DNA from: a virus
Reading direction: 5' to 3' (one strand)
Virus genome (UHGV): UHGV-1374678
DNA: 64,000 bases
The notes under the pieces were generated by a model, which saw only the letters and a list, made by a program, of their open reading frames with translations, searched no databases and was not told the origin of the DNA. Every line of letters starts with the position of its first letter. Position 1 is the first letter of the stretch. The translations under genes were made by a program, and so were the position numbers. This document shows, piece after piece, positions 2,432 through 64,000 of this stretch.

Positions 2432-2462
2432 ATAAAATTCTTTCATGGTATAAGTTTTTAAA

Positions 2463-2482: not shown

Positions 2483-2484
2483 GA

Positions 2485-6634: not shown

Positions 6635-6705
6635 GTATGAGGGCTATATGCCCTTTTACGATTAAATATGACAACAAAAATATAATTTTAAAGGAGAATA
6701 TCCAT

Positions 6706-7839: not shown

Positions 7840-7853
7840 GAGAATAAGTATTT

Positions 7854-8339: not shown

Positions 8340-8353
8340 GCGGTACGATAGAT

Positions 8354-9904: not shown

Positions 9905-9932
9905 TAAAAAAGTAAATGAGGTACTAGGTGAT

Positions 9933-47672: not shown

Positions 47673-50600
47673 TTACAGGTGCAATAATTTCACACCTTCA
47701 AGTGCTGCAATCTGAGCTTTTAGGCTGTTAATATCTTTGCTCTGATTTTTGATCTTTTTGTCATAATCGTAATATTCAGCTTTTCTCTGCAAAGCTTCCT
47801 TTCTCTTTGAGATGATTTTATCAAGATATTCAACTTCCGTTGACATTGCATTCTTGTATAAATCAATTAAGGAATCTTGGTACGATTTAACATCTTGTGT
47901 GCTGTCCTGAATACCCTTTCGATATTCTTGTGACTTTTCATTATACTCGTCTAATGAAATAACACCGTTCTGATATAACTCCTGTAACTTTTGAAGTCCA
48001 GTTGTATAATCAGATATCTTTTGTTTCGCATTTCCAAGGCTTTGGGACAGGAGAGCAATTTGTGCCAATCCATCTTCTGTAATTCCGCCTTGTTTATCAA
48101 GAAAAGCATCTTCATTAAGGAGTGCTCTAAATCCTGATAATTCGTCTTCAAGATCAGAATAACTTTGAATAGCCTTTTCTATATTTGTCATACGGAGATC
48201 ATAAATCGAATCCTTAAGATCTTCATTGTCTTTCTGAAGTTTTAGAATCTCTGTATCCGCACTGCTAATTTTATCAGCCAGCTCCTGATATCTTTTTGAA
48301 TTAACATCATAAACAGATTGCTCCTTAAGATATTGGTTTCTTAAATCATACTGTTTTTTAATATTAGCATTGTTATTATCAATTTGCTCCTGATATACAG
48401 TTTCCGGGACTTCTTTATCTTGTGCCTCCAACAAATCAACATATGAACTAAGTTTATCTACTCTACGTGAGAATCCGTCAATAATATTCTGAAGAGTATC
48501 ATAACTAATCTGTCGTAACTGATCCTGCAACTCAATTAATTCAGACGATGCTTTTGTTATATTGGTTGTAAAGTCCTGAATGTTCTTCATGGTATCATAC
48601 CATTGCTCAGAACCTTTTTTCATAAGACCGGAATTCAACTGAGAGTTTACTTCTGCTTGGTAGTCAGACAACTTCTTTGTCAAAGAATCGTAAATTTCAG
48701 ATTGTGTCTGAATCGATTTCTGTATACTGTCTGTATTTTGATGGTTATCAATTGCCGTACCGAGATTTTCAAGAAGAGTGCGGTTTTCTTTAAGACCGTC
48801 TTTTATAGACTCTTTCAGATTCTCTATTGCATCATATTCATCTTCAATAATACTAAGCCTTTTCTCTGCTAATTCTGTTAATTTATCTTCTAAAGTAAGT
48901 ACATTGTCAAGAGCAGATAGATAATTTTCATAATATGTTTTATATTTAGAAATTTTATCATTCAAATCACTGTCTTTAATTGTCTCAATATTTAATGTAC
49001 CATTACGAACTTTAGATGCATATGTCTCGCTTAATCCAACCGCATTTGCGGCATTCAAATATGCTTGGGCTGCTTGTTGGTTAGTTTTGATTTCAGACTG
49101 TACCTTGGAAATAGCATCCGCAGCTTTCACTTGCTTATTCACAAGACCAATCGCCCTGTCAATTGCATCAACTGCTAAATCAGTTATTCTCTTAACTCTT
49201 GAAAGTAAAGTTTCAATCCAATCAATAACATTTTCTGATGCGTCTTTTGATGAACTATCCGATGAGGAATTATTATTAGAAGAGGAGTTGTTATTAGAAG
49301 ATGATTTCTTTTTCTTTGAAGAAGATGTTGCTTTGCTTCCAGAACCACCAGTTCCGAAAGTAACACCGCTAGTACCACCATACCCTGCATGTGCAGTACC
49401 ATGTGCCAAAGCCGTTCCTCGTGAATTAATAAATCCAGAAGAAAGCAGTTGCTTTGTTTGATTTGCATCAAACACAATAGAACCTTGTGGAATACGTGTA
49501 AATTCAGCACCATTGTCACCAACGGTTCGCCATTTACCATTCTTAGGATCAACAACAATTTCTTGTCCTAGTTCACCAACTAAAGAGCCTTCAGATTTTT
49601 TTGTTCTCCAACTAGATTTTAACCAACTTGTATCAGATATATTGCCATTTGCGTAAGCACTTCCGTACATTCTTGGATTGATTGTTCCAAATGTATGTGC
49701 AGTACCAGAAGCACTTGAAGCTCCTTTTTTTACTGCGGATGCAACTTTACTTGCTACATTGGTTTGAGGCATATTTACAGTTGAAGCATAGTATGTGACT
49801 TTTCCTGTTAATGTTGGTGCGGAATTAGGGAATAAAGCCTTTGTATAATTGGCAAGACCATTAATTGTAGGTGCTATCTTAGGATGGTCGCCCATTTCAT
49901 AACTAACTGTACCATCTTCATTTTTTACTTCATCAAGATAATAATTAACACCATCAACATTTGCGATATAAGCAATTTCTCCACTTTCTGTTTTGACAGC
50001 TTCAATCTGAGTTGGTACATTATCGACGTTTGCCGTAAAATATAATTCTTGTCCCGTTTTTAACTGATTGAGCTGTGCTTGAACTTGATCTGTTGTAGCA
50101 TCAACTTTCATATAAATTGTGTTATCATCTGGACGAGATAAAATACCATCAATTTTTGCATCCGCTTCTGTAGTATCAACGTCAACCTTGATCAGCCCCA
50201 TATCTGATAATACATCAACAAATTCATTTAAATACGACGGGTCAATATTCATAGATTGCATTAATGTACTTAATGAATCTTCCATTGCAGAAGTCTGGTT
50301 ATCTGTCAAATCAATTGACTTCAATTGTTGTTCAGAATAATCCTTAAGAGAACTAAGAGATGCTTTTTGTGCTTCGTCCCCAAGATAAAATTGATCCTGT
50401 ACAAGATGTAGGGCTTCAGCATATCTATTGGCTTGCTCTACAGAATCTTCTCCATAATAAGTTCTTATTTTAAGACCGTCAGTATCTTCTCCACCATTTA
50501 AAAGTTCTTGTGCATAACTTTTTAATTCTTCCGGGCTATACACATCTCCATTTGGTAAAATAGGAGTTACGACAATTGTTTTATCCCCTGCTTCATTTGA

Positions 50601-53600
50601 GAATCCACTTGTATACACAGTTGCAGTAGAATCTTCTGGAACGTCCCAACCGACATCGTTCATATACTTACCAGAAACTTCAGGTCTATTTGTTAAATCA
50701 ACATTTCCTCTTTCTGTAGTTACTTCAACCGTTGCTTTTTTACCTTCTGTTTTATTGATGGCATTATCAACAGTTGAGTCAAATTTAGATGTATCTGCAT
50801 CAACCGTCATAGTTCCAGAAGTATTGTCAACTTTCTCTTTAGTTTCTTGAGTCTTCTGATCTACCTCTGTTGTATCGGCTTTGTAATGATAGATTCCATC
50901 AAAACTTTTATAAAGTTCTACCTTTTTCCCGTCTTCAAATTCTGCATAGTAATGAATTTCACCATCGATTCTTTGTCCCGAAATTACAGATGACTTAGTT
51001 GTTGTTTTCCCGTTCTCGTCAGTAAATTGAACATCGCCATTAAAAGTAATAGTCTGTCCCTCTTTTAGATTGTCTATTTGTGCTTGGATCTGAGAGAAAT
51101 CTGCATCCGCTTTCATGACAATTAATAAATCATCTGAATATGCAACACCCATCAAATCATTTAATGCTTGTTGCTTTTCAATCTCAAGAGTTGCAATTAT
51201 CTCTGGATCCATATTCTCAATAGTGCTCAGAACACTTTCTTGACTAGACGGATCAATCCCAAGGTCAGTCAGCATCTGTGGGTCTGCATTTTTAATGGTT
51301 TCGTATAAAGTCTTAACTTTATTCTCCGCATCTGTAGTATCAATGTCTATCCCAACGCCTTTTAATGTTTTTTGTCTTTCAAGTTCGTATTTAGCCTGAG
51401 AAAATTCTTTAAGGCTATTTAAAAGATTTGCAGAATCGTTCTTGAGATTTGCAAAATTAACTCCACTATATTTACTTTCGGTAAGAGACTGTTTTTGAGC
51501 ATATAATGCATTAATAGAATTGATCATTGCCTGAGAAGAGCTGTCATTAAATGACTTTCCTTTACCGTTGAGCTTTTGGTTACTTAACAACGCTTTTTGA
51601 ACAAGGGCAATTTGATCGTCAAGATTTTGTTGATTTGTTGAATCAAAATTGATTGTTGCGTCATTAATTCCATGTGTTTTTGCATAGCCCATAGAATATT
51701 TATTAACCAAATTTTGTGTTGTTCTAATAGTTTTTTGTGCTTGCTCTTTAAGTTCATCGGCATTATTTAAGTCCACATCGATACCAATGACTTTATTCGA
51801 TATTTTATCAAGTTCTTCTTCTGCATTTACAATATTTAAATTAGCATCTAGCTCGATACCATTCTCATTTGCAATTTTCTGAATCTCTGTTTCGAGTGCT
51901 TTTGCAACTTCGTCTGTGTCTGTTCCATACGCTTTGGTAGATTTAATTCTATCTCTTTCAGTAAGCAGGGTAGTAATCTGTTCTTTTCCTTGTTTAATCT
52001 TTTCAGCATACTCATCTGCGGAGTGTTTTGCTAACTGTTCTGTAGCAGAGCGTGTTTCTGCTAAATCATTCTGTAATGCAGCGATTTCATTTTTCTTTTG
52101 TGTAATAGCTGTGTTGTCAGCACCAGTGGCTTGCAACTCAGCTAACTCAGCCTGTGCCTTTGCAATTTTCGAAGATAAGTCTGTAATTCTTTCAGCACCG
52201 TCAGCTACAGATCCAACAAAATTATTATGAGCACCATAATCTTCCAATCTGCCAAACATGTCCATGAACCAATCAAAGCTCATACCCATATCTTTAGCAG
52301 CGTCAGTTATGTCTCCAATGTTGTATGTCCATTGTTTACTTCCATCAGCGAGTGCTTGAGAAGCTGCGTATCCCTTTTTCTCTAAATCTGTTAAGAAATT
52401 CTGAACCCCTGTTGCATCTTCTGTCATATATCTTGCTGCTTTGTTATAATTTTCTGCAAAATTTACAGCATCATCAGCACCAGTAGGAGAGAAGTATGCA
52501 GCCCTGGTCTTAAAATCATCTGTGCCAATAAGACCTTTATCAAAGGCTTCTTTTGCTTCTGTCAGATATGTAACACCTTTTACATAATCGTCCCCAGCAT
52601 TTGCGGATTCGTCAGCAGCATCAATTGCAGAAAAGGCACTGTTGTCTTTTAAGTCAATGGCAGTAGCTCCGGCTGCAATCGTATCTTCTATTTTCTTCTT
52701 AAGCTTATCAAAATCATAGCCAACTTCGTCCGCATTGTCACTCATGACAATATCATATGCGGTATTTATCTCTTTGATATTGAGATCGTTTATAGCGTCT
52801 CCAAACTTTTCTTTTAAGACTTTTGTTTTGTCAGAAACTTCTTCTGTCAATTGATCTAACCCGAATATTGTCTTGAAAGAATTTTGTGCCTCCTTATCAT
52901 TCGGGAAGGCATCATCTAAAGCCTTGCTTATTGCGTATTTATAATTTTCAAGATGTAGATTGTCAGGATTGATATTTAATAAATCAGCAATTTTTTCTTG
53001 AGCTTCTGGTTTAAGATCATTCATTGGCTCTATAAACTCAGAATATATGAAACTTGTAATATCTCCATCATAATCATCCATGATAGTATCGATATCAAAG
53101 TCAAAGTCACCAAAATTAGTTGTGAATGCATTTTGTAATTTGGAATCCAAAGATGTAAATTCTGTTGAAGTTTGTAAATATTTCGATACAGAATCACTCA
53201 AAGATTTAAACTGTTCTTTTATTAAAGAATTCTTCTCTTGAACTTTTTTCTTATCTTCGTTAATTTGTTGAGTAAGCTTTTCTTCAGAATTAATTTTGCT
53301 CTCCTCTAACACTTTACTGAGTTCCTTCGCAGTATCTTTGTTCATTGGAGTGGAATAGGTTAATAACCCTGTTTTTTCAGAGTATGTTGACGCAGGAGTC
53401 AAACCGTGTTTCTTTAATACTTTAAGTAGGTCGTTACCTTTAACAAGTGTTGGATCAAAAGAAACCGATTGTTTCTTAAAAATATTTTTATCATTAGCTC
53501 TTTCTGAAATTGCTTTTATTGCATTTTCTTTTTTTTCTATTGAATTTTCAAGATCTGTTCTATCATTAGAATATACTTTAATTTGTTCTTTAATTCCATC

Positions 53601-54248
53601 AAATGCATCTTGCAAATCTTCTCCAATTTTAATATGGGAAGAGTTTAAAGAAGCGTCATACAATTCGTTTAAAGATTTTGCAGCAGTGGCTGCATTGTTT
53701 CCAATATTTAAAATTGCATTTCCCTGTGCGTCATAACCTGCAACTATTTCCGGGAATACATTAGCTAATTGATTCGACGTATCAATATAAGATTGATAAT
53801 CTTCATCGCTTAACAACTTGTTAGAATTATCTGAGTTTACGCCTTCTTTTAATTCGGCATACTTTTTAGCAACTTCATCAATTGCATCCCCAGTGCTTTT
53901 TATTTCTTCTGGATTTTTTGCAAAACTTTTCCCAAGATTTTCTATAGAATTTTTATTTTCAGAAAAAGTCTTGAAAGTAGAGTCAATGGAAGCCTTTGCC
54001 TCCTCTCCTTTTTCAATTAGTTTTTCTGACCGATGAATATAATCATCAATTAATTCTATTCCTTTAGTTATTATAGCGGAAGCAGCCATGCTAATTCCAA
54101 AACTTGCGATTGAAGAGACAAAAGTTCCTGCAAAATTTTTCACGCCAGTTTTTAATTTTGACATGGTAGAAGAAAATTTGCTTTGAGAACTTGTTGCTTC
54201 TTCTGTAGCAACTTGAAATTCACTATAACTGATTTTCCCTTCTTTCAA
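47673..54248 (-). CDS. tail tape measure protein, main part (2191 aa, TTG start; frame open a further 92 codons upstream)
   Basis: Long coiled coil; hydrophobic segment FAGTFVSSIASFGISMAASAII; S/N low-complexity run; sits upstream of Dit and Tal. Confidence 0.8.
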   Translation of the reverse strand: MKEGKISYSEFQVATEEATSSQSKFSSTMSKLKTGVKNFAGTFVSSIASFGISMAASAIITKGIELIDDYIHRSEKLIEKGEEAKASIDSTFKTFSENKNSIENLGKSFAKNPEEIKSTGDAIDEVAKKYAELKEGVNSDNSNKLLSDEDYQSYIDTSNQLANVFPEIVAGYDAQGNAILNIGNNAATAAKSLNELYDASLNSSHIKIGEDLQDAFDGIKEQIKVYSNDRTDLENSIEKKENAIKAISERANDKNIFKKQSVSFDPTLVKGNDLLKVLKKHGLTPASTYSEKTGLLTYSTPMNKDTAKELSKVLEESKINSEEKLTQQINEDKKKVQEKNSLIKEQFKSLSDSVSKYLQTSTEFTSLDSKLQNAFTTNFGDFDFDIDTIMDDYDGDITSFIYSEFIEPMNDLKPEAQEKIADLLNINPDNLHLENYKYAISKALDDAFPNDKEAQNSFKTIFGLDQLTEEVSDKTKVLKEKFGDAINDLNIKEINTAYDIVMSDNADEVGYDFDKLKKKIEDTIAAGATAIDLKDNSAFSAIDAADESANAGDDYVKGVTYLTEAKEAFDKGLIGTDDFKTRAAYFSPTGADDAVNFAENYNKAARYMTEDATGVQNFLTDLEKKGYAASQALADGSKQWTYNIGDITDAAKDMGMSFDWFMDMFGRLEDYGAHNNFVGSVADGAERITDLSSKIAKAQAELAELQATGADNTAITQKKNEIAALQNDLAETRSATEQLAKHSADEYAEKIKQGKEQITTLLTERDRIKSTKAYGTDTDEVAKALETEIQKIANENGIELDANLNIVNAEEELDKISNKVIGIDVDLNNADELKEQAQKTIRTTQNLVNKYSMGYAKTHGINDATINFDSTNQQNLDDQIALVQKALLSNQKLNGKGKSFNDSSSQAMINSINALYAQKQSLTESKYSGVNFANLKNDSANLLNSLKEFSQAKYELERQKTLKGVGIDIDTTDAENKVKTLYETIKNADPQMLTDLGIDPSSQESVLSTIENMDPEIIATLEIEKQQALNDLMGVAYSDDLLIVMKADADFSQIQAQIDNLKEGQTITFNGDVQFTDENGKTTTKSSVISGQRIDGEIHYYAEFEDGKKVELYKSFDGIYHYKADTTEVDQKTQETKEKVDNTSGTMTVDADTSKFDSTVDNAINKTEGKKATVEVTTERGNVDLTNRPEVSGKYMNDVGWDVPEDSTATVYTSGFSNEAGDKTIVVTPILPNGDVYSPEELKSYAQELLNGGEDTDGLKIRTYYGEDSVEQANRYAEALHLVQDQFYLGDEAQKASLSSLKDYSEQQLKSIDLTDNQTSAMEDSLSTLMQSMNIDPSYLNEFVDVLSDMGLIKVDVDTTEADAKIDGILSRPDDNTIYMKVDATTDQVQAQLNQLKTGQELYFTANVDNVPTQIEAVKTESGEIAYIANVDGVNYYLDEVKNEDGTVSYEMGDHPKIAPTINGLANYTKALFPNSAPTLTGKVTYYASTVNMPQTNVASKVASAVKKGASSASGTAHTFGTINPRMYGSAYANGNISDTSWLKSSWRTKKSEGSLVGELGQEIVVDPKNGKWRTVGDNGAEFTRIPQGSIVFDANQTKQLLSSGFINSRGTALAHGTAHAGYGGTSGVTFGTGGSGSKATSSSKKKKSSSNNNSSSNNNSSSDSSSKDASENVIDWIETLLSRVKRITDLAVDAIDRAIGLVNKQVKAADAISKVQSEIKTNQQAAQAYLNAANAVGLSETYASKVRNGTLNIETIKDSDLNDKISKYKTYYENYLSALDNVLTLEDKLTELAEKRLSIIEDEYDAIENLKESIKDGLKENRTLLENLGTAIDNHQNTDSIQKSIQTQSEIYDSLTKKLSDYQAEVNSQLNSGLMKKGSEQWYDTMKNIQDFTTNITKASSELIELQDQLRQISYDTLQNIIDGFSRRVDKLSSYVDLLEAQDKEVPETVYQEQIDNNNANIKKQYDLRNQYLKEQSVYDVNSKRYQELADKISSADTEILKLQKDNEDLKDSIYDLRMTNIEKAIQSYSDLEDELSGFRALLNEDAFLDKQGGITEDGLAQIALLSQSLGNAKQKISDYTTGLQKLQELYQNGVISLDEYNEKSQEYRKGIQDSTQDVKSYQDSLIDLYKNAMSTEVEYLDKIISKRKEALQRKAEYYDYDKKIKNQSKDINSLKAQIAALEGVKLLHL

Positions 54249-54494
54249 TGCCTTTGCCGAATCGACAAGCTTTTTATCAACATCCCCAAGCGATTTTCCA
54301 AGCGCTGCCGTTGTAATATTAAGTGGTTTTTGTTGTAAGTTTTCTAGATTTGTTCCGCCTTCTGTTACAGAAGAAATTAATTTGCCAAAACTGCGATTTG
54401 CTTTTATTTGGTTTTCAGATTTTGGCGTAAATAAATTAGAAAAAATAGAACTAAAACCGTTTTCTTTGTCATAGCTTAAAATCGTTTTTTTAAT

Positions 54495-54523
54495 TGATAT
54501 AATTATATTACTTGCAATAATAT
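54495..54523 (+). promoter_or_regulatory. sigma70-like promoter for the island gene 54549..55004
   Basis: TTGATA - 17 nt - TAATAT, 25 nt upstream of the ATG. Confidence 0.4.
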
Positions 54524-54548
54524 ATTATTTGAAAATGGAGGAGAGTTT

Positions 54549-55004
54549 ATGAATATCAAATACTGTCCAGAATGTGCGAAATGTAAAAAATCAATAGAAG
54601 ATCCTGAAGATTTTTATGCTGGATATCAAGTCTATTTTTTTCAAGATAAAATTGGGAAAACATGTCAAATTTGTAACAAGGATACGTTAATAGAAACAAA
54701 CATAACTGAAGATGAGCTTCATGAAATAGGAGAAGCGTCAAACTATAATCCTTCTTTTCTCAAAGCCATGCGTGAACTCAAAGAAAAAGACATCATAGAA
54801 TATGAACTTAAAATGTCACAGTTCCGGTCACAAGTCGAACAGAAAAACAAAGCAAGAGAAGAAGCAAATCGTCCGAGGTGTCCGAAGTGTGGTTCTACCT
54901 CAATTGCAACGACAACTCGTGGTTACTCATTTTGGACAGGATTTGTCGGCTCTGGTAAACCAATGAACGTGTGTCAAAATTGTGGTCATAAGTGGAAGAT
55001 ATAA
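54549..55004 (+). CDS. double zinc-ribbon protein (N-terminal CPEC..C..C, C-terminal CPKCG...CQNCGHKW)
   Basis: RBS TGGAGGAGAGTTT ATG; the 3' end is the source of the 42-nt repeats. Confidence 0.6.
54954..54995 (+). repeat. repeat copy 1 (native 3' end of the zinc-ribbon gene)
   Basis: GGTAAACCAATGAACGTGTGTCAAAATTGTGGTCATAAGTGG. Confidence 0.55.
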
Positions 55005-55305
55005 CACGAATATTTTATCCAAAGCACAAATACGCTCTTGTTTTTTTGCTAACTGCTTTTGATAAATATAAGTTTTCTTCATAAAAATATCACCTACTTT
55101 AAAAATATTTATTTTTAGAACGTTTGCAACATTTGTTCCTGTGTTCATTTTCAAGAACCTTACACCTACGGTTGTATTCTTTAACATAAGAAGCAGGGAT
55201 ATAGTTTGTATCTTCTATTGGCTTGCTTAATTCTACCATATAACCTATTAACATTTTTTCAATATTACAAATAAAGACCATCTCCTTTAAGAAAGTGTGA
55301 TATGT

Positions 55306-56061
55306 ATGGATAAAAATATATTAAAAATCTACGGATTAACTGGTGCGTATTGTAAATTTATGGGAATTACTAAAATGCCAAAATTTAAAGTAAAAACATT
55401 TAAAGGTGGAAATGCATCTGCGTATATTTCCTATCAAAATAATTCTCAAATATTTAATATAGAAGAAAACTATATTAATGTTTTAAAACAAAACGCACTA
55501 CCTCTTATTTATCATGAATTTACTCACATTGTAGATAACGAAAGTTTTCTTCCAGAAGTGAGTGCAAAAACAAAAATTCCATTCATAAAAATGTTATCGG
55601 AATATAGAGCTATTCAAGTTCAAATGAAAATAAGCATGAATTTTGAAATCTATAATGAAGATAAAAAGTTTTCATTTGATGATAAAACACATGATTGGTT
55701 TGAAGAAAAAACCGTAAAAGAAGATATAGTATATAAAACTGAAGATTTTGTTGCAACGATAAAAAATCTTTTAAGTAAAAAAGAAAATAATTATACTTAT
55801 TTTTTAGTTCTACATTGTGTGTATTACCAGAGCATGTGTGATTTTTGGAAAGAATATTGTATTAATGAAGTTCAACATCTATTAAAAGAAGATATAATAA
55901 ATACTTTATTTGGATTAGAATTTGATATTTTCCATCATATGTTATCAAAAATAGATAACAAAGATATAAATTATTTTAAATTACTGTTATCATCTCAGAA
56001 TAAAATGGTCGGATATTTTGGATTATATGAAGACGAAATCATAAAAACATTAAGCGTATAG
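55306..56061 (+). CDS. HExxH-motif protein (putative ImmA/IrrE-like or other zinc metallopeptidase)
   Basis: LIYHEFTHIVDN; start ATG at 55306 inside track ORF 55297..56061. Confidence 0.55.
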   Translation: MDKNILKIYGLTGAYCKFMGITKMPKFKVKTFKGGNASAYISYQNNSQIFNIEENYINVLKQNALPLIYHEFTHIVDNESFLPEVSAKTKIPFIKMLSEYRAIQVQMKISMNFEIYNEDKKFSFDDKTHDWFEEKTVKEDIVYKTEDFVATIKNLLSKKENNYTYFLVLHCVYYQSMCDFWKEYCINEVQHLLKEDIINTLFGLEFDIFHHMLSKIDNKDINYFKLLLSSQNKMVGYFGLYEDEIIKTLSV

Positions 56062-56151
56062 AAATAAATTATTCTTAATGTACAGCGAAAAGTGATATCT
56101 GTCGGGAAGAAGATCAAAGGATCTATATTGTTTGGTTTATTCAGCAACGAT

Positions 56152-56193
56152 GCTAAAAAACAAATGAGATGCAAGGATTGTGGATATAAATTT
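56152..56193 (+). repeat. repeat copy 2 (remnant zinc-ribbon 3' end, ...MRCKDCGYKF*)
   Basis: GCTAAAAAACAAATGAGATGCAAGGATTGTGGATATAAATTT; same frame as the upstream gene after two stops. Confidence 0.55.
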
Positions 56194-56334
56194 TAATCAA
56201 ATAAATGTGCAATCGTATAGCAAAATAATTTTATCCTTAAAAGTAAAATTGACATTCTTTTCTTTTTTACTTCTTTTGAGTAAACATAATTATCTTTCAA
56301 AATAAAATCACCTACGCTTTCTGGAGGAATGAAT

Positions 56335-56496
56335 ATGACAAACGAAAATAACAAAAGTATAAAGCAAACTACAGCAGATAAAAACAAGCAAAAAGATACT
56401 CGTAAACCATTACCGAAAGCTAATATAATTGGTAAACGCTTAGAGATATTTAACATGGATTTAAATGTTATATACAAGAAGAATAAGAAAAAATAG
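56335..56496 (+). CDS. small basic protein (53 aa)
   Basis: Strong RBS CTGGAGGAATGAAT ATG; below the ORF-track size cutoff. Confidence 0.5.
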   Translation: MTNENNKSIKQTTADKNKQKDTRKPLPKANIIGKRLEIFNMDLNVIYKKNKKK

Positions 56497-56692
56497 CATT
56501 TTACTTAGTTTTTTATACTTTTGGTTTCTTTCCATGCAGCAAATGCCATTCTACATTTTTTGAATTCTTGATCTGCAATTTTGTCTTGTTTTTTATTAAA
56601 ATCATCACATATTTTTTGCTGCTTAAAGGAAAGACAGAATATTTCTTGTCGCATTCCTATAATATGTGCTTTTGGCAAAGGAGATTTTTTTA

Positions 56693-57223
56693 ATGAGTTC
56701 ATATAACGATATCCTTTCTTTTGAAAATGACTACTACAAAGAATTATATTACGATGGTGCAAAACAGAGAGATAGGATAAATAGTAAATTTACACCAACA
56801 ATAACATTATTAACTGCTGAAACATCTGGAATCATTTGGATTATCTTCAATTTAGTGAAGAAGATGAAGTCGTTTAATTTTATATCAATTACAGCAACAA
56901 TAATCTTGTGTTTTATAATTTTATTTGGGTTAGTAGCTCTTGTGAATTTTTTATTTTGTTTTTTAAAATATGGCTTTCTATATCCAAAACCAGCCGATGT
57001 GAAAAATTTTATTAAAGAAAATAAAACATATATTGGTGAATATACAGAAAAAGAGATTGTTGATAATATTGTAGAACAAATTTCTTCTGAATATATTACA
57101 ATGGCAATTAAAAATAATAAAGAAATAAATAACAGGTCAAAATATCTGAACAAGTGTTACATAGGAATTGTGTACACGTTGTTATTTATGATTATTGAAT
57201 TCCTAATATTATTATTTATGTAA
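56693..57223 (+). CDS. three-TM membrane protein (candidate abortive-infection / exclusion effector)
   Basis: RBS AAAGGAGATTTTTTTA ATG; TM helices IIWIIFNLV, ISITATIILCFIILFGLVALVNFLF, IGIVYTLLFMIIEFLILLF. Confidence 0.6.
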   Translation: MSSYNDILSFENDYYKELYYDGAKQRDRINSKFTPTITLLTAETSGIIWIIFNLVKKMKSFNFISITATIILCFIILFGLVALVNFLFCFLKYGFLYPKPADVKNFIKENKTYIGEYTEKEIVDNIVEQISSEYITMAIKNNKEINNRSKYLNKCYIGIVYTLLFMIIEFLILLFM

Positions 57224-57261
57224 AAGTATAATAAAATATAATTGTTTTATTAAGTAAGAAC

Positions 57262-57304
57262 GCTAAAAACAAAATTTGAACGTAAGGATTGTGGATATAA
57301 GTGG
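57262..57304 (+). repeat. repeat copy 3 (remnant zinc-ribbon 3' end, ...ERKDCGYKW*)
   Basis: GCTAAAAACAAAATTTGAACGTAAGGATTGTGGATATAAGTGG; 15/18 identical to copy 1 across the Cys-codon core. Confidence 0.55.
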
Positions 57305-57328
57305 TAGGAGAACATGGATGTTTTTGAA

Positions 57329-57541
57329 CTACCGATCATACAAACTAATTAAAACTTTTCCAAGTTCAAGAGCAATGGCTTCATCAAAGTCTTCTGCGAT
57401 TAATTTTGCTAATTCACATGTTGGATGACACAAAACAAAATCTTCATCATCCGATAATTTGCTTTTACCAGTTTTTGGAGCAAGTTCGTTCCAATAATAA
57501 CTAATAAATTTACCTGTTTTCGAATGATCCATATCATTCAC
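57329..57541 (-). CDS. small acidic protein (GTG start), divergent from 57567..58031
   Basis: 70 aa; weak RBS; only 25 nt from the divergent gene. Confidence 0.35.
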   Translation of the reverse strand: MNDMDHSKTGKFISYYWNELAPKTGKSKLSDDEDFVLCHPTCELAKLIAEDFDEAIALELGKVLISLYDR

Positions 57542-57566
57542 CTGCCTTTCAAAAAATGGAGAAATT

Positions 57567-58031
57567 ATGAGATTAAATCACGATTATATTAGAAACATTC
57601 TTCTTTTTATAGAAGAGAACTTAAATTATAAAGAATATACTGATATGCCATCATATCATAAAACACCTTCTTTTGCAGAAGTATTATCTGATGAGTATTT
57701 TGTGGACTACAACCAAGAAGAACTTTTGTATGCAATGGAACTTCTAATACGAGAGAAGTATATTCAATGTACAAAAGAGCCATATTTTGTAAATGGTAGT
57801 CTTATGAGCGCAGACATTGTTGGATTGACATGGAACGGATATCAATTTCTTGATAATGTAAGAAACGATACTGTTTGGAATGCAGTAAAAGAAAAAGCAA
57901 AACAATATGGTCAATTTTCAATCAAGACATTAGCATCCGCAGCAGGTTCTTTATCTGTAGCTTTAATGAACGATACAAACGCTATTCAGAATTTTTTACA
58001 AGGTGTTGGTAATATAGTTAAAATTATTTGA
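57567..58031 (+). CDS. DUF2513-like (YjcQ-like) winged-helix protein
   Basis: N-terminal MRLNHDYIRNILLFIEEN; internal DIVGLTWNGYQFLDNVRNDTVW; RBS TGGAGAAATT ATG. Confidence 0.5.
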   Translation: MRLNHDYIRNILLFIEENLNYKEYTDMPSYHKTPSFAEVLSDEYFVDYNQEELLYAMELLIREKYIQCTKEPYFVNGSLMSADIVGLTWNGYQFLDNVRNDTVWNAVKEKAKQYGQFSIKTLASAAGSLSVALMNDTNAIQNFLQGVGNIVKII

Positions 58032-58150
58032 AGTGACTTTACTATTGAAACTAATAATGTAATTACTGAAATAATCATTGACAAGTTTTGGTATTTTTCT
58101 GAAAGCTTCAATAGTGGCATAAAAATTTTATCATTAATAAAATCAGACAT
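57986..58150 (-). CDS. small single-TM protein (54 aa from the internal ATG)
   Basis: RBS GAGGTAATAAC ATG; TM segment LSMIISVITLLVSIVKSLQIILTIL; overlaps the 3' end of the convergent + gene. Confidence 0.35.
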   Translation of the reverse strand: MSDFINDKIFMPLLKLSEKYQNLSMIISVITLLVSIVKSLQIILTILPTPCKKF

Positions 58151-58212
58151 GTTATTACCTCGAAACAAAAGAATGGCATTGTAATAGCTGTGGAAGTGAC
58201 TTTTAAATCAAT

Positions 58213-58238
58213 AAAAGACACCGATTAAGGTGTCTTTT
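58213..58238. terminator. bidirectional rho-independent terminator
   Basis: AAAAGACACC-GATTAA-GGTGTCTTTT with T runs on both strands. Confidence 0.6.
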
Positions 58239-58241
58239 AAT

Positions 58242-59255
58242 TTAATTAGAATATATAGATAACGGTGCAACAATACTACTTACTTTTGATTCTAATACAA
58301 CATTACTTTCTATTACTGCATCTTCAGTTGTCACATCTAATAAGTGTGGTTGACTCATCGTTTTAATCACTTCTATAACATCAAGTATTGGAAATTTTGA
58401 TCTTGAAACTAATTCTTTACAAACCAAACGATCCAAAGGAGAACATAAATTGATTTCCTTTGGCATATTCCCATTTGCGTTGATAAATTGTTTTACAATA
58501 TTCCAACCTTCATAGAAAATCTCCATAAAAGATTCGTCATATGGAACTGGACATACAATTAAATTTTTTGTTTCATGTTGATAAATTTTATCGGATTTCC
58601 CTTGAGCAGAAGGAACTATCCCAAGTCTTAAACCTCTTGCACCTTCTAATTGCTTTGGATTTATTTTAACAGTTGTACCAACCCATTTGTCTACATCTGT
58701 ATTTCCAACAAATAAATCTGCTTTCCATAAACCATTTATGCTACTAGGAAGTTTTTCTCTCTCTTTTGGTTTTCTGAACGATGAAACAACTCCGTTTATA
58801 TGTCTTTTTAATTTTATTGGCTTCCCTTTTTTACCTGTTAACAATATAGAATCATCAGTCAGATGTTCTTTTACACTGTCAATAAACTGTATTGTATTTG
58901 CTTCTTTTTCTACGCCAAACAAAATAGAAGATGGATCGTTCCCTTTTATGTTGCAGAATTTTGAAAGTGCAGAATCTATTCTGTTCAAAACATTTGGATC
59001 TTTTGATATGATTGCATCATGTACCGCATATTCAAAACAAATTCCACAATCTCCATCACCAGGACTGTATAATCTTGTAAATAATTCAAGTGTTATTTTG
59101 TCGTATCCACCGATCTGGTTTATTATGTCTTGTTTTATAGTATGCACCAAACCAGTTAAAATAGGATGAATAACAGAGAATAATGCTTCGTATTCAGAAT
59201 TAACTGCATTTGTTTGAATGCATTTTATTTTTTTAATCATTTTTATTCTCTCCAT
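58242..59255 (-). CDS. 337-aa protein of unknown family (candidate defence / nuclease-like), divergent from the XRE regulator
   Basis: No recognised motif; alone between terminators. Confidence 0.6.
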   Translation of the reverse strand: MERIKMIKKIKCIQTNAVNSEYEALFSVIHPILTGLVHTIKQDIINQIGGYDKITLELFTRLYSPGDGDCGICFEYAVHDAIISKDPNVLNRIDSALSKFCNIKGNDPSSILFGVEKEANTIQFIDSVKEHLTDDSILLTGKKGKPIKLKRHINGVVSSFRKPKEREKLPSSINGLWKADLFVGNTDVDKWVGTTVKINPKQLEGARGLRLGIVPSAQGKSDKIYQHETKNLIVCPVPYDESFMEIFYEGWNIVKQFINANGNMPKEINLCSPLDRLVCKELVSRSKFPILDVIEVIKTMSQPHLLDVTTEDAVIESNVVLESKVSSIVAPLSIYSN

Positions 59256-59355
59256 TTATTTTCTCCTTTTATTATACGACACAATATGACAAAGTACAAT
59301 TCAAAACATATGTTCTAATATATGCTAACAAGTACAAAAGCATCAGATTTTATAT

Positions 59356-59384
59356 TTGACCCAATTCCATTTTCTTCCTATAAT
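59356..59384 (+). promoter_or_regulatory. near-consensus sigma70 promoter (TTGACC-17-TATAAT) for the XRE gene
   Basis: Read directly from the sequence; 38 nt upstream of ATG 59422. Confidence 0.5.
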
Positions 59385-59421
59385 AATACACATCATCTTT
59401 TTTACTCGGAGGGTGCAATAC

Positions 59422-59628
59422 ATGAATTATTTTTCAGAAAACCTTTTATATTATAGGAAGAAACGTGGAATGACACAAAATGATATTGCCAGAAAAGTAT
59501 TTGTTAAGCATCAGACAATCTCAAATTATGAAAAGAACACAAGAACCTGTGATTTGAACACACTTGTTTTACTTTCCAATGCTCTTGATATCACACTGGA
59601 TGAATTGATTAAAAATCCACATCCATAA
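59422..59628 (+). CDS. XRE-family HTH transcriptional regulator
   Basis: GMTQNDIARKVFVKHQTISNYEKN...; RBS GGAGGGTGCAATAC ATG. Confidence 0.7.
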   Translation: MNYFSENLLYYRKKRGMTQNDIARKVFVKHQTISNYEKNTRTCDLNTLVLLSNALDITLDELIKNPHP

Positions 59629-59642
59629 TACTTAGTTGTATG

Positions 59643-59822
59643 TAGGAATACCAACAAACACAAGACCTTTTACATTATGAGCATCTATACTTTTACCTGC
59701 TTCTTCATAACTTGTGAATTTTGTTTCCGATACAACCTTGTGATCAAATTTACCTTCTGTATTTTTCGTTACCTGAATTCCAATGACATCTACACCTATA
59801 TTTTTCATCATATCTTTCCTCC
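59643..59822 (-). CDS. small protein (59 aa), co-transcribed downstream of the - strand XRE gene
   Basis: RBS GGAGGAAAGAT ATG placed 4 nt after the HTH gene stop; below the ORF-track size cutoff. Confidence 0.5.
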
Positions 59823-59826
59823 ACTC

Positions 59827-60030
59827 TCAGAGTTTGAATATATCTTCAACAGACACACCAAGAGCATGGGCAAGTTTGATAGCTGTATAAACATGTGGGT
59901 TTTCAAGAGGATTATTTTCTATCAAACTTATTGTAGAATGTGACACATTGCTTTTCATAGCAAGTTGTGTTTGTGACCAATCTTTTTCCCATCTTAATTC
60001 CTGCAATCTGTTACGCATATATTCACACAC
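59827..60030 (-). CDS. XRE-family HTH transcriptional regulator (Cro/cI-like)
   Basis: LRWEKDWSQTQLAMKSNVSHSTISLIENN... Confidence 0.7.
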   Translation of the reverse strand: MCEYMRNRLQELRWEKDWSQTQLAMKSNVSHSTISLIENNPLENPHVYTAIKLAHALGVSVEDIFKL

Positions 60031-60151
60031 CCTTTTATTTTTAGTATGTGTAAATTGAAGCTTCTTCTTTACAAGAAAATAATACCAATAATTTTTGCAT
60101 AGAAGTAGAACAGTTTTTTATGGAAATTACGTAACTTTTTCTATATTCAGT

Positions 60152-60173
60152 TATATACTATATATAGTATATA
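60152..60173. promoter_or_regulatory. perfect 22-bp palindrome TATATACTATATATAGTATATA (operator candidate)
   Basis: Lies in the divergent intergenic region upstream of the - strand XRE gene. Confidence 0.5.
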
Positions 60174-60275
60174 CATTTTCAGATGTGTATGAACTAATGT
60201 TCTGTATTTACCATTTTTAGTGAAAATGATATAATATTTTCTGATAGATAGTTATGATGCAAACCTGTACCATCA

Positions 60276-60617
60276 TTGTATGCGCGCACTATCCATCAAA
60301 AAAACAGGGAGTACCAGTGTAAGACTGATACGGTTCGAAAAATTAAAGAGTGTCTAAAATTCAGGGTGTTCTGCCCATTTTATTCCCTCGTAATTAACAT
60401 TCTTACAGAAGGGAGGGTAGAGTTGAATTTACTAGAATTAATAGTAAACAACTTAGACATTAGTATAATTGCAGCTTGCGTAATGTATTTCATTCACGAA
60501 GCTTTCAAATTTGCAAGTGTTATTGTGATTTCCAAGTCCGATAATCTTACAGATAAGAAAGCTCAAGCAATTGCAAAGATAATGTCATTTAGATTCGACT
60601 TTCGAATCAAAAAATAA
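60276..60617 (+). CDS. small membrane protein; likely true start at TTG 60423 after RBS GGGAGGG (65 aa)
   Basis: TM segment ISIIAACVMYFIHEAFKFASVIVI; the 5' 140 nt of the track ORF looks like a structured leader. Confidence 0.4.
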   Translation: MYARTIHQKNREYQCKTDTVRKIKECLKFRVFCPFYSLVINILTEGRVELNLLELIVNNLDISIIAACVMYFIHEAFKFASVIVISKSDNLTDKKAQAIAKIMSFRFDFRIKK

Positions 60618-61203
60618 TTTCTGAATTTTGTCATTTTTCATTTTTAATTTTTCCTTTAATTCAATTATGCTCCGTGGAGTCCATATCTTCACGGAGTTCT
60701 TTATATTATATTCTCCAATAGGAGATAATATTTGTTTTATGTTTTTTATACTCATTAAGTTTTTGCAAGTCATCAATGAGTTTGTGTGATTTGTGTCAAT
60801 AGGGTAGTAGTAGACTACTTGCATATCCCCTACGACTTCCACAGGCTTTCCCCGTGGTCACGGACTGTATGTTTGAACCAATAGTACAATTACGCCTGTA
60901 CTACGTCATGCCTTGTCAGCCTCTCGCACGATACATGAAACCACACTTTCATTTTTATTGTAACGTGTCGGGACTACCGTTTTCGTATTTCTACTTATTT
61001 CTTCGTGAACATAAGATTTAATCTTACGCTTTTATTGCATCACTCCGATACCATATTTGTATGGCTTACGGCTTCCCCCGAAATTCGGCATATTTTGATT
61101 TTAGTTAAATCAAGGTGGATAGAAGATATGTATGTTCATATTACTTCATATTCTCTCTACGTTAAACATATGGCATTGTTATATGTCCTTATAGAAATAG
61201 GCA

Positions 61204-64000
61204 TTAAAAACTATGACGTTTACCTCCACCTTTACTTTTTAAAGATGCTACAGCAGATATTGTACCTATGATTGCTGGTATTCCACCGAATGTATCAACA
61301 ATTTGTGTTAATACTTTTAAAAATTCATTTGCACCTTCAACAGCAGTTTTAAAAAGATCAGAGCCTAAGAAGCTTGTTGAAAAATCCTGAAACGTACCTT
61401 TGATTTGCTCGATACTATATTCAATACCTTTCTTATAATTTTCCAACTCTTTCTCTGCTGATCCAGATGAATTTTCTGCTGTTTCATAAGCACTCTTAAT
61501 TACGTCTACATTATTAATAGCGGCTGCGAGTGCGTTTGACTGATTCTTACCAGCCAATGTTTCGAGCAAGTCTGCTCGATTAATATCTGAAAGGCTTGAC
61601 CACCTTTCACCGATTCCTACAACAATATCATAGATATCTTTATAGGTATCTTTATCCTGCATGATGTCAAAGCCACCTGTCAGTGCTTTGACTTTTGCTT
61701 GTAATTTTGAGGTTGAGGTTATAAGACCATCTGTGTCCTCGTTCATCTCACTAAGCTCAGACTCTGAACCTCTAAGTCTGGCACTAACCGTTTTCCACAT
61801 ATTACCGACCTTATCTGGATCCTGTAATGTAGTATTGGTTCCAGTAATCAAAGCAATTGACTTTGATAAACTTGTATGACTCGCATTAAATGACGCAGCA
61901 CTTCTCTGTAAAGCGTCACCAATTCCATCACTTCCGATTGCGAAATTATTTGCTACCTCATTAAGTTTATCCACAATCGATTCTGCTTGCGAAGCCTGCA
62001 TATTATAACCCTGAAGGATTGATACAAGACTTTGCGATGCAGTTTCTTGAGTCATGTTATCTCCGACTCGCTGATACAATGTTGTTGCATCAGATGATTT
62101 CTTAGCGTCTTCAAGATTATAACCCAATTTTGACCAGTCAGCAGTACTGCTAATTACGTCACTGACTGTCGCACCATATTTTTGTGCACTTGCAGTTGCT
62201 TCATCCCAGTAATTTTTCAATTCTGTATCAGAAGCATTGCTTACTTTTCTTAATTCAATCTGTGCAGCATTAACTTCCCTTACTGCACTAACAACTTTGG
62301 ATGGGAACTGCATCATTGTATTCTGTAATATATAATACATCCCGGTAAACTGAGCAATCTGTCCAAAAGCACGCTTCATATCTGCCCATGTAGAAGACCC
62401 TGTTAGACCTTGAGATTTAATCTCTGCTTGCAACTGCTTTGCTTGGCGAGCTGCATCAGCCTGATCCCCTTTTGTCTGAGCATTAGCCTTCGCTTGATAA
62501 ATGGATTCCATCCGATCTTTGTATTTTGACCATGCTTTAGTATTGCTGTTCATATAAGCTCGGAACTCATTTGCGTCCTTTTGTGCCTCGCCTTTCCCAA
62601 GCGTTTTAGACTCCACTTGTTTTACTTCTTGCAAAGCATTCTTATACTTAGTTACTGATTTTTCAAGGTTTTCATAAAGAGAAGAAACATGTGACGTATC
62701 TATATTTTCCGCTGTTAATGCACTTGTAATTTCTGTTTGATACGCATTTACTTGCTTTGCCAATGAACGAAGTTTTTCTAAATGGGTGCTCGACTGACCA
62801 GTATATTTACTAAGTTCAGTTTCCATCGTTGTTGTTCTAAGACTGAACTCCCCAGACTCTGCCTTGTCTCTAATGGAAGATAGTTTGGTCAACGCTTCTT
62901 TGCGTTGCTTTACCTCTACCATAACTGCACTTAGTTCTTTATCTACAGACTCTTTGCCAGATGAAGTTAATCCGTCAGTATATTTCCCCTGAATCTTAGT
63001 CAAACTTTCTGACTGAGCCTTTGTCATAAATTCAGAATATTCTTTCTGGAAATTGGCAATCTTTTCCCTTGCTTTATCGAGAGAAGACATATTCAAGGAT
63101 TTTTCCATGGTAGACTCTACAGTACCCATAGAAGCCTCAAAAGCCTTCGTAGCAGCAGTTAAATTATTAAATTCTCTTTCAATTTCTCCTAGGGAAGCAC
63201 CTGTAGAAATCAGGCTTTTAAGACGATTTTGCGAATCAAGAATTTTCTGACTCCAATCTTCTGCATTTGTCAAATCAGAAGATGTTTGTCCAGAATAGTT
63301 AGAAATACGATTTTCTCTTTTTGCTCTCGATGTAGTTATAGCTTCGTCTGTTACCAAAGCTTTTGCTTTTTCTCTAATGGAAGATAATTTGGTGTTTTCA
63401 GCAGCCATCAAAGAGTTCTGTCGTTTTGTGTAAGCATCATGTTCGGCTTTTGCTGACTTGTCCATATCAGCGATCCATTTTTCCTGTTCAGCCTTTTGAG
63501 CTTCGTGATATGCTTTTTGTGTAGCAAGACGATTCTTTTCTGCTTGGTTTTCCTTTGCCTGCTGTCGAGCTTCTACACCCATTTCATAATCAGATTTAGC
63601 ATTTCGATAAATACGTGCTGATCGATTTTCGTATTCGTCGTTATAAAATCCACGATCTTTTGCTTCTTTAAGATATTTTCTTCTGTCGAGAATAGATTTT
63701 TCTAAATCAGCCATTCTTGCTTTTGTCTGTTGATATTCTTCTGGCTTAACATTCCCTTTTGATACCTTCGTCTTTAACTGATAATATTCTGTTATTTCTT
63801 TATTTAAGGCACCGTATTCTTTTTTTAAATTAATAACTTCTTTCTCAGAAGTAGTTACTCCATTAACAGTCTTTATGTTCTTTCCGTTAGAGTATGTTGT
63901 GTCTGTGACAGTTTTATCTCTCCCTTTGGTTATAGTTGTCTTGTCAATATTCTTAGATTGTTTATCTACATTTTTTCCACCTTGATTATTGCCAAAAGCC
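61204..64000 (-). CDS. TP901-type tape-measure N-terminal fragment (5' end beyond window; frame open to the edge)
   Basis: TMP core-like GSDGIGDALQRSAASFN...GTNTTLQDPDKVGNMWKTVSARLRG; hydrophobic C-terminus FGGIPAIIGTISAVASL; long coiled coil. The - strand frame has no stop between 63715 and 64000. Confidence 0.65.
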   Translation of the reverse strand, partial: AFGNNQGGKNVDKQSKNIDKTTITKGRDKTVTDTTYSNGKNIKTVNGVTTSEKEVINLKKEYGALNKEITEYYQLKTKVSKGNVKPEEYQQTKARMADLEKSILDRRKYLKEAKDRGFYNDEYENRSARIYRNAKSDYEMGVEARQQAKENQAEKNRLATQKAYHEAQKAEQEKWIADMDKSAKAEHDAYTKRQNSLMAAENTKLSSIREKAKALVTDEAITTSRAKRENRISNYSGQTSSDLTNAEDWSQKILDSQNRLKSLISTGASLGEIEREFNNLTAATKAFEASMGTVESTMEKSLNMSSLDKAREKIANFQKEYSEFMTKAQSESLTKIQGKYTDGLTSSGKESVDKELSAVMVEVKQRKEALTKLSSIRDKAESGEFSLRTTTMETELSKYTGQSSTHLEKLRSLAKQVNAYQTEITSALTAENIDTSHVSSLYENLEKSVTKYKNALQEVKQVESKTLGKGEAQKDANEFRAYMNSNTKAWSKYKDRMESIYQAKANAQTKGDQADAARQAKQLQAEIKSQGLTGSSTWADMKRAFGQIAQFTGMYYILQNTMMQFPSKVVSAVREVNAAQIELRKVSNASDTELKNYWDEATASAQKYGATVSDVISSTADWSKLGYNLEDAKKSSDATTLYQRVGDNMTQETASQSLVSILQGYNMQASQAESIVDKLNEVANNFAIGSDGIGDALQRSAASFNASHTSLSKSIALITGTNTTLQDPDKVGNMWKTVSARLRGSESELSEMNEDTDGLITSTSKLQAKVKALTGGFDIMQDKDTYKDIYDIVVGIGERWSSLSDINRADLLETLAGKNQSNALAAAINNVDVIKSAYETAENSSGSAEKELENYKKGIEYSIEQIKGTFQDFSTSFLGSDLFKTAVEGANEFLKVLTQIVDTFGGIPAIIGTISAVASLKSKGGGKRHSF

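Follow-up and report, generated by a model that had tools for sequence, protein, structure and literature searches.

A predicted multi-gene group I intron in the tape-measure gene of a large temperate phage

Organisation of the tape-measure locus

The stretch of DNA analysed here (the window) comprises 64,000 nucleotides (nt) of UHGV virus genome UHGV-1374678, a large phage or prophage of low GC content (~33%). Its gene for the tape-measure protein (TMP) is found in two parts on the − strand, separated by a 6.7-kb island of small genes on both strands, in which the GC content is 25–30% as against 33–40% outside. The evidence described below indicates that the island is most probably the interior of a group I intron, and that the two parts of the gene are rejoined by RNA splicing.

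The upstream part is the open reading frame (ORF) 61204..>64000 (−), which meets no stop before the end of the window. It matches PF10145 (PhageMin_Tail, E 6.5e-19) and TMP families of PHROGs (phrog_4211, E 4e-66), and its C-terminus is hydrophobic (...GGIPAIIGTISAVASLKSKGGGKRHSF*), in agreement with the original prediction for this DNA, which had noted a TP901-type TMP signature and a hydrophobic end. The full upstream ORF corresponds to protein P0001, of 993 amino acids (aa) including five codons read through into the intron, with 100% identity over the matched part. The downstream part is annotated as a 2191-aa ORF (47673..54248, −), which, as had been recognised, can start only at a TTG (54248), and whose frame stays open for 92 further codons upstream, to 54524, with no ATG, GTG or TTG. 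These extra codons had also been described as resembling TMP. This holds for the last 78 of them (54482..54249), which are assigned here to the second exon, but not for the first 14 (54524..54483), which belong to the intron.

On the single-TMP profile phrog_4211, the N-terminal part covers positions 407–948 and the C-terminal part positions 926–1565. They lie in order on the profile, and are therefore colinear pieces of one TMP, as the original prediction had supposed in placing the island within a single TMP gene. Homology of the downstream part to the C-terminal parts of TMP at three related loci (L001, L006 and L009, introduced below) begins at the predicted splice site (tblastn). The interruption is thus real, but its limits are corrected here to 54483..61221: the last five codons of the upstream ORF (KRHSF) and its stop are part of the intron. 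The description of the island as a mixture of about 12 non-structural genes is borne out as regards the use of both strands and the gene types named, namely two XRE/HTH_3 regulators, a 254-aa protein with an HEFTH motif, a 185-aa hydrophobic protein and a 337-aa unknown, to which a DUF2513 protein and a 151-aa zinc-ribbon protein can be added. The number of credible genes is however about 9–10.

The interruption in related phages

The first clue to the nature of the interruption came from the 17 top homologues of the upstream part, which were read residue by residue. All of them end at one position: they stop within a few to about 40 codons past a hydrophobic 'G.IPA...KxxG' segment, and each has a different tail. 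Judged from the sequences, differing tails at one conserved site are the signature of reading into an intervening sequence.

The tail genes of close relatives of the window phage are SPbeta-like. Two of the homologues were followed to the contigs that encode them (loci L001 and L002), which come from SPbeta-like phages with YomU, YomV, YomW, YomX, YonB and YonD domains. In both, the N-terminal part of TMP is followed by 2–5 kb of small genes, partly on the opposite strand, and then by a large ORF encoding the C-terminal part. The DNA just past the stop of the N-terminal part is conserved among the window, L001 and L002, and so is a motif just before the C-terminal part (ACGATTTTWARCTAYG).

Several homologues of 61204-64000 (P0008, P0049, P0031 and P0019) stop at the same position with other read-through tails, for example ...KNLGKPEIMGFYLLYLH and ...KNFDSPEIMGTVNFRYLH. 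These tails suggest that a different intervening element may occupy the same TMP site in other phage lineages.

Predicted splice sites and exon pairing

The predicted intron occupies 61221..54483 (−), a length of 6,739 nt. Exon 1 (61222..64000, −, continuing past the window, and containing the PF10145 and phrog_4211 matches) has the glycine codon GGT (61224-61222) as its last codon. Exon 2 (47673..54482, −), with 2269 codons and a stop, opens with ILSYDKENGFSS... and lacks a start codon of its own in its first 78 codons. The 3′ end of exon 1, at 61222, is ...AAAGGUGGAGGU, and ligation is predicted to produce ...AAAGGUGGAGGU|AUUUUAAGCUAUGAC..., with the join GGT|ATT in frame. The predicted 30-mer spanning the exon junction is AAAGGTGGAGGT|ATTTTAAGCTATGACAAAGA, the predicted junction peptide is ...SLKSKGGGILSYDK..., and the predicted spliced TMP has 988 + 2269 = 3,257 aa.

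The region of the 5′ splice site (61199..61225, −) contains the helix P1, a guide strand and an in-frame TAA (61206-61204). In P1, the exon sequence AGGU (61225-61222) pairs with GCCU (61202-61199), which lies 20 nt inside the intron, and this places a U·G pair at the splice site. The final five codons of the upstream ORF and its stop fall in the P1 loop, the stop being 15 nt into the intron. Phage introns commonly have an early stop of this kind. In an alignment of 23 sequences of the family (alignment A1), 87 of the 92 cells in P1 are paired, and the pair at the splice site is U·G in 22 sequences and C·A in one. Compensatory changes are seen in two of the four P1 pairs, mainly as A-U/G-C exchanges at the outermost pair.

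The guide, GUCAUAGUUUUUAAU (61217-61203), is formed by the 15 nt preceding GCCU. It is complementary at 13 of 15 positions to the start of exon 2, AUUUUAAGCUAUGAC (54482-54468), 6.7 kb away, with which it would form the helix P10. The target lies directly after ...AAAAAACG and opens the frame of the C-terminal part (ILSYD...). The 3′ splice site region (54468..54483, −) thus has the terminal G of the intron at 54483 (...AAAAAACG|), the intron ending in ...ACG.

The predicted ribozyme core

The predicted ribozyme core comprises about 470 nt directly after exon 1 (60751..61221, −), and runs from P1 through P9.2. The elements found are P1, P2, P2a, P2.1, P2.2, P3, P4, P5 with extensions, P6, P7, P3′, P8, P7′, P9, P9.1 and P9.2. 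They follow the canonical group I order, P3-P4-P5-P6-P7-P3′-P8-P7′-P9, and P7 crosses P3 as a pseudoknot. The core helices P3 (61090-87/60912-09), P4 (61081-77/60972-68), P7 (60921-17/60867-63) and P8 (60904-897/60888-881) all lie on the − strand, and P9 is closed by a GAAA-type loop. The core lacks P7.1/P7.2 between P3′ and P8, unlike the IA introns that are typical of phages. Its minimum free energy has a z-score of −4.3 against shuffled sequences. Four segments look recognisable by eye as the classical P, Q, R and S elements (UUGCGGGGAAACC, GUCCCGAC, GAGAGGCUGACA and ACAUACAGUCC), by comparison with consensus sequences.

Covariation was counted on alignment A1, using as controls partners slid by 1–3 columns and 500 column shuffles. 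The core helices are paired in 90.7% of cells, compared with 33–49% in the slid controls; by helix, the values are 98.9% for P3, 82.6% for P4, 89.8% for P6, 93.9% for P7 and 96.1% for P8. Changes on both sides occur in 27 pairs and 139 cells (12–34 cells in the slid controls), and none of the 500 shuffles scored as high. P3 is found as UGCC/GGCA, UGUC/GACA and GGUC/GACC, with two compensatory pairs, while P8 has seven. One G-C pair of P7 is invariant in all 23 sequences. A loop–loop contact between L2a and L8 also covaries (UGCC/GGCG, CGCC/GGCG, UGCC/GGCA and AAGCC/GGCUU), and both loops are missing together in two members of the family, L030 and L045, the latter being the one with the 993-nt intron.

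Distribution of the predicted intron family

Two core patterns identify the ribozyme core at 80 loci in IMG/VR and metagenomes, on contigs of 90–236 kb, many of them from human gut. The 80 loci form about 18 clusters at 93% identity. At 47 of them the tblastn match to the TMP core ends no more than 45 nt from the 5′ splice site, and at five it ends about 50–70 nt upstream of this site. A further group of about 22 loci, of the L031 type, has no TMP-core match near the splice site. The member of this group that was inspected, L029, has the TMP core in exons further upstream. The upstream sequence of the remaining six is too short to place. At every locus with enough upstream sequence, the ribozyme core is found at the same TMP position, after the hydrophobic segment.

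The best complement of the guide is unique at each locus, matching at 14–15 of 15 positions with a runner-up of 11–13. All 17 distinct 3′ junctions end in CG, and the site always opens the frame of the C-terminal part. The lengths of the introns are 993, 1025, 1026, 1042, 1299, 1329, 2004, 4088, 4438, 4569, 4787, 5057, 5123, 5677, 6357, 6739 and 7728 nt. There are two splice phases, GGT|ATT GTA AAC and GGG T|TT GTA AAC, and the frame is restored in both. On genome-representative contigs the core pattern gave almost only chance matches, in high-GC Actinomycetota, and no relatives were found among INPHARED phages by blastn or tblastn.

It is worth adding that the N-terminal part of TMP at three loci (L029, at 5556-10537, L007 and L009) is itself in several exons, with interruptions of 0.3–2 kb. 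Two of those in L029 hold ORFs, of 235 aa (7004-7711) and 393 aa (9102-10283). The interruptions have no match in Rfam, and are probably further introns. At another locus (L130, 1-6927) an ORF encoding 1917 aa of the C-terminal part is followed by Crp-family and ArsP genes and not by baseplate genes; this element may be a truncated prophage.

Comparison with a sister phage

The sister phage L082 (a 236-kb contig) is 99.8% identical to the window over the last 1100 nt of exon 1, up to the splice site, and 97.9% identical over 6810 nt of exon 2, which align without a gap. The intron of L082 has a length of 2,004 nt. The first 1.4 kb, which contains the core and an XRE module, is 79% identical to the window, and the genes for the 337-aa, DUF2513, membrane, HExxH and zinc-ribbon proteins are absent. 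The blocks of high identity break and resume at the predicted splice sites, and within the core P9.1 shows compensatory changes between the two phages.

Over the 2269 gap-free codons of exon 2, the ratio of nonsynonymous to synonymous changes (pN/pS) between the window and L082 is 0.10, which indicates purifying selection. Exon 2 is therefore kept as coding sequence even though it has no start for 78 codons, and this argues both against inactivation of the gene and against independent translation of its second part.

Interpretation and alternatives

The features described above are a P1 with U·G at the splice site, a covarying core, a long P10, a terminal G, an in-frame join, and the same site in dozens of phages. 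Taken together, they make RNA splicing the most likely way in which the gene is restored. We therefore estimate at roughly 85%, from sequence comparison, the probability that the island forms the inner part of a group I intron of 6,739 nt, located in the TMP gene of a large temperate phage, and that TMP is rejoined by RNA splicing. The original prediction had offered a choice between a TMP gene split or inactivated by insertion of DNA and a TMP made as two polypeptides. Neither is the best reading: the sequences that border the island make up the two ends of a predicted group I intron.

Some observations weigh against this conclusion. Searches of Rfam 15 gave no match to a group I or any other intron (for the window region at E ≤ 1, for the 993-nt member at E ≤ 10, and for 15 loci at the gathering score), and the RNA is therefore classed as group I on structural hallmarks and not on a match to a model. 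P7 has one-sided changes only, with no compensatory pair among the 23 sequences. P10 is 94.5% paired over 14 shared columns across the family (29–46% when slid) and includes exchanges of CGUAG/CUACG for CAUAG/CUAUG with A-U/G-C compensation, but these figures and those for the terminal G are partly circular, the 3′ sites having been picked by maximal pairing and a preceding G. The sites are backed independently by the reading frame, the conserved CG, the point at which homology of the C-terminal part begins and the comparison with L082. An allele with an intron-less junction was not found, either in protein searches with queries that span the junction or open exon 2, or with two junction DNA patterns in IMG/VR. 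Finally, a terminator-like hairpin in the sense direction (58239-58212) and convergent transcription of the cargo could hinder formation of the 6.7-kb precursor, or read-through to exon 2.

This last point bears on an alternative that we consider unlikely, in which the intron family is real and the 6.7-kb version in the window splices inefficiently, leaving a truncated TMP and no normal tails. The length of the intron, the sense hairpin and the several antisense promoter-like sites inside it would be in keeping with poor splicing. Nevertheless the core, guide, P10 and terminal G of the window are all intact, and the core and first 3 kb are 97% identical to the intron of L009. Ten intron lengths above 4 kb occur in different phages, with intact exon frames. 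Exon 2 of the window is moreover unbroken over its whole length, with the low pN/pS noted above relative to the short-intron L082, and the changes in P9.1 between these two phages are compensatory.

It is quite unlikely that splicing occurs in trans, with exon 1 and the core on one RNA, and the 3′ site and exon 2 on a second RNA that originates within the cargo and is held by the 15-bp P10. An arrangement of this kind could make use of a P10 that is unusually long (14–15 bp) and conserved throughout the family, and of the confinement of all core helices to the 5′ 470 nt, which means that the 3′ piece needs only ...CG and P10; the sense hairpin also fits. However, the members of 1–1.3 kb share the long P10 without needing trans-splicing, no conserved sense promoter was identified upstream of the 3′ splice site, and splicing in cis is simpler.

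The upstream ORF has its own stop, and gene callers give two proteins in all relatives, as would be expected if TMP consisted of two polypeptides from two genes and the conserved RNA had another role. This is very unlikely, given that exon 2 is conserved as coding sequence yet offers no ATG, GTG or TTG in its first 78 codons, that the tails after the junction are variable read-through, that the ends of both exons are paired with the RNA, in frame and in two phases, and that the two parts are colinear with single TMPs.

Hardly credible is a DNA element in the TMP gene (a moron island, an integrative element or an insertion sequence (IS)), removed if at all by DNA recombination: the lower GC content, mixed strands, own regulators and a cargo that is mosaic among relatives would suit it, but no integrase, recombinase or transposase is found among the island proteins in Pfam, PHROGs, NCBIfam or PADLOC, direct or inverted repeats at the junctions do not exceed chance, the sequences bordering the island form an RNA structure that covaries, and all lineages are interrupted at one and the same nucleotide position, irrespective of their cargo. 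DNA recombination probably does account for the entry of cargo into the intron, though not for TMP expression.

Other candidates were tried and rejected. An att-site model, including a GGTAAAC crossover core, yielded only chance-level repeats at the junctions. A group II intron was suggested by a GUGCG string, but conservation begins 300 nt earlier and there is no reverse-transcriptase ORF. For a split intein there are only five codons past the junction, and no intein domain is present in either part of TMP. An IS110-type bridge RNA acting with the 337-aa protein was discarded, as L001, L002 and L082 share the RNA without that protein.

Cargo genes inside the predicted intron

The genes of the island can be followed from the core towards the 3′ splice site. 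Nearest to the ribozyme core is a 113-aa ORF (60276-60617, +; ORF call). It is followed by a 67-aa XRE/HTH regulator in the sense direction (59827-60030, −), which matches phrog_3 (E 1.6e-16) and the PADLOC entries HTH and 'control protein', and is also present in the L082 intron. Beyond a 59-aa ORF (59632-59811, −; ORF call) is an antisense XRE/HTH_3 regulator (59356-59628, +; PF01381, E 2.5e-13), with a 68-aa XRE homologue in the L082 intron. The 337-aa protein of unknown function (58242-59255, −, sense) matches phrog_30306 (E 1.7e-92) and has a near-identical counterpart in the L009 intron. It has no match in Pfam, NCBIfam, PADLOC or PDB, and a single-sequence AlphaFold model, with a pLDDT of 31, was too poor to use.

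The hairpin discussed above is terminator-like in both directions (58212-58239), and lies between the gene for the 337-aa protein and the convergent antisense gene for a DUF2513 protein (57567-58031, +; PF10711, E 1.2e-20). Genes of the DUF2513 family are also found in the introns of L001, L031 and L105. Three further antisense genes complete the island: a hydrophobic protein of 185 aa (56666-57223, +), described from the ORF translation and with no family match; the 254-aa HExxH protein (HEFTH; 55297-56061, +), again with no family match but with HExxH proteins also in the introns of L039 and L105; and the 151-aa zinc-ribbon protein (54549-55004, +), which adjoins the 3′ splice site. The several antisense promoter-like sites come from a scan for promoters and terminators. 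Searching the window cargo against PADLOC gave nothing except the HTH-type matches of both XRE proteins.

The cargo is a mosaic. Between the introns of the window and L009 there is 97% identity over the first 3 kb and 91% over the last 350 nt, and the middle is different. The 7,728-nt intron of L036 contains adjacent KwaA-like (E 2e-15) and KwaB-like ORFs, convergent in the ORF call, together with an NsnB/AriA-like AAA_15 ATPase (E 8e-74) with DUF3696, beside a 295-aa unknown. It also contains a CI/LexA-like repressor, recognised by eye only from an N-terminal HTH-like segment. A PDC-S45-like trypsin-type protease and a DUF3800 protein are found in the L039 intron, and a PemK/MazF-like toxin and a GNAT protein in that of L031. 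Further HExxH and DUF2513 proteins occur in the introns of relatives. A Pfam scan of ten cargo proteins from relatives revealed no transposase.

The conserved antisense zinc-ribbon protein

In 17 of the 18 introns with defined ends, a zinc-ribbon protein of 145–160 aa is encoded in antisense, 35–70 nt from the 3′ splice site. Its gene is the sole gene of the minimal 1-kb introns, and the intron without it is that of L082. The protein has 524 unnamed homologues, and the two that were examined in their contigs both lie in the order N-terminal TMP, zinc ribbon, C-terminal TMP. On the basis of this distribution, the 151-aa double zinc-ribbon protein of the window is, as judged by its homologues, the conserved intron-encoded protein of the family.

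The AlphaFold model (pLDDT 84) predicts an N-terminal zinc ribbon, a helical segment (AMxxLxxxDIIEYExKMSQF) and a C-terminal zinc ribbon. A search with the model gave no significant structural neighbour, and it has no recognisable nuclease fold.

Proposed mechanism

We propose that during lytic growth the late transcript runs across the whole intron, the 470-nt core folds, and the ribozyme splices. The unusually long P10 would pick the distant 3′ splice site, and P9.0 (a conserved GU after P7′ with the AC before the terminal G) probably helps to recruit it. The ligated mRNA would be translated into a single TMP of the predicted 3,257 aa. Unspliced RNA would give only the 993-aa N-terminal product, because a stop is reached 15 nt after the 5′ splice site.

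Downstream of P9.2, as far as the 3′ splice site, the intron would be structurally neutral and tolerate any insert, and this part would thus become a recombination hotspot for accessory genes. These genes would have their own promoters, many of them antisense, and would include XRE regulators in the window and defence or toxin genes in relatives. They could then be expressed in the prophage, independently of the silent late operon.

We suggest, tentatively, a more specific function, namely that the intron family may serve, within an essential late gene, as a heritable cargo bay for accessory genes and for genes of anti-phage defence. Kilobases of foreign DNA with genes on either strand would fit between the core and the distant 3′ splice site, which the 15-bp P10 would hold. 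Cargo promoters would be active in the lysogen, and TMP would be restored by splicing only on late read-through. The zinc-ribbon protein or antisense transcription of the cargo might assist or control this splicing, which might even take place in trans. If this were true, the ribozyme would be an organiser of a phage defence and moron hotspot, and possibly a checkpoint in tail assembly.

Comparison with known systems

The T4 introns in td, nrdB and nrdD/sunY are about 0.6–1.1 kb long and contain one sense-strand endonuclease ORF. Like the present family, they are group I introns that interrupt an essential phage gene, have a stop in frame soon after the 5′ splice site, and accommodate an ORF in a region that is peripheral or lies towards the 3′ end. 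The family described here differs in its cargo, which can reach about ten genes; most of these have promoters of their own, and many are antisense.

Group I introns are known in the TMP genes of prophages of the Bacillus cereus group, as TMP-IVS1, TMP-IVS2 and TMP-IVS3 (Tourasse and Kolsto 2008, PMC2504315). These are likewise in TMP genes of temperate Firmicutes phages, their sites are defined by P1 and P10, and related introns are found across phages. They are small introns of types IA1 and IA2, with or without a homing-endonuclease ORF (PMC2504315). The present family, by contrast, lacks P7.1/P7.2. Its cargo, 0.5–7 kb in length and made up of several genes on both strands, is placed downstream of P9.2 and ahead of the 3′ splice site; P10 extends to 15 bp, and in place of a known homing endonuclease there is an antisense gene for a zinc-ribbon protein.

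The IStrons CdISt1 and BcISt1 combine a 5′ ribozyme with 3′ cargo (PMC4227781). They share with the introns described here a complete 5′ ribozyme, cargo placed before the 3′ splice site, splicing as one unit, and occurrence in Firmicutes. The cargo of IStrons is of IS200/IS605 type (tnpA/tnpB) and they occupy many unrelated sites (PMC4227781), whereas in the present family no transposase was found and the TMP position is fixed. The cargo consists instead of variable regulators, defence-like genes and unknowns.

A giant multi-gene group I intron, ND5-717, is found in hexacoral and corallimorpharian mitochondria (PMC6545197). It too extends over many kb and contains several genes unrelated to splicing or mobility. 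It is however organellar, with essential same-strand mitochondrial genes inside P8, and it undergoes back-splicing (PMC6545197), while the family described here is of phage origin and has accessory cargo on both strands, after P9.2. In open-access papers and preprints, we found no description of a group I intron, in a phage or a bacterium, that carries kilobases of accessory or defence genes on both strands.

The genes of phage structural operons are closely spaced, and morons are usually located between them. Here, 1–7.7 kb of exchangeable genes lie inside an essential coding sequence, and the TMP gene would tolerate them because they can be cut out of the transcript by the ribozyme. If splicing does occur, the group I introns of bacteria and phages would extend to multi-gene carriers, for which the only precedents in the literature searched are IStrons and giant mitochondrial introns. 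It would also represent an overlooked defence and toxin hotspot in gut Firmicutes prophages (Kiwa-like, NsnB/AriA-like ATPase, MazF-like and PDC-S45), and would account for the 'truncated' TMP calls in hundreds of metagenomic phages. The choice of a 3′ splice site over a kilobase range by a long P10 would be a natural case of relevance to ribozyme engineering.

Other features of the window

The + strand half of the window is a replication and nucleotide-metabolism module, with Pol III alpha, a DnaB-like helicase, NAD ligase, NrdD and FolD. The − strand half is a structural and lysis module, leading from the window end through TMP, Dit/Tal-like proteins, receptor-binding proteins and an amidase (33208-34227) to a tyrosine integrase at its far end (31752-33038).

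NrdD (1119 aa; 25172-28531, +) contains an intein with a LAGLIDADG homing-endonuclease domain, which is a second self-splicing element of this phage. A 'drum' RNA is recognised by Rfam at 47085-47193 (−), with a score of 51.8 bits that is above the gathering score. It is located between the TMP stop (47673) and a gene for a PBECR4 nuclease-like protein (46407-47054). In the parts of the window at 285-457 (−), 1291-1374 (+) and 1693-2797 (+), FuFi-1 and RAGATH-27 RNAs, also above their Rfam gathering scores, adjoin a cluster of tRNA genes (Ile-TAT, Gln and Leu), in which one tRNA-like gene has a 2-base anticodon according to ARAGORN.

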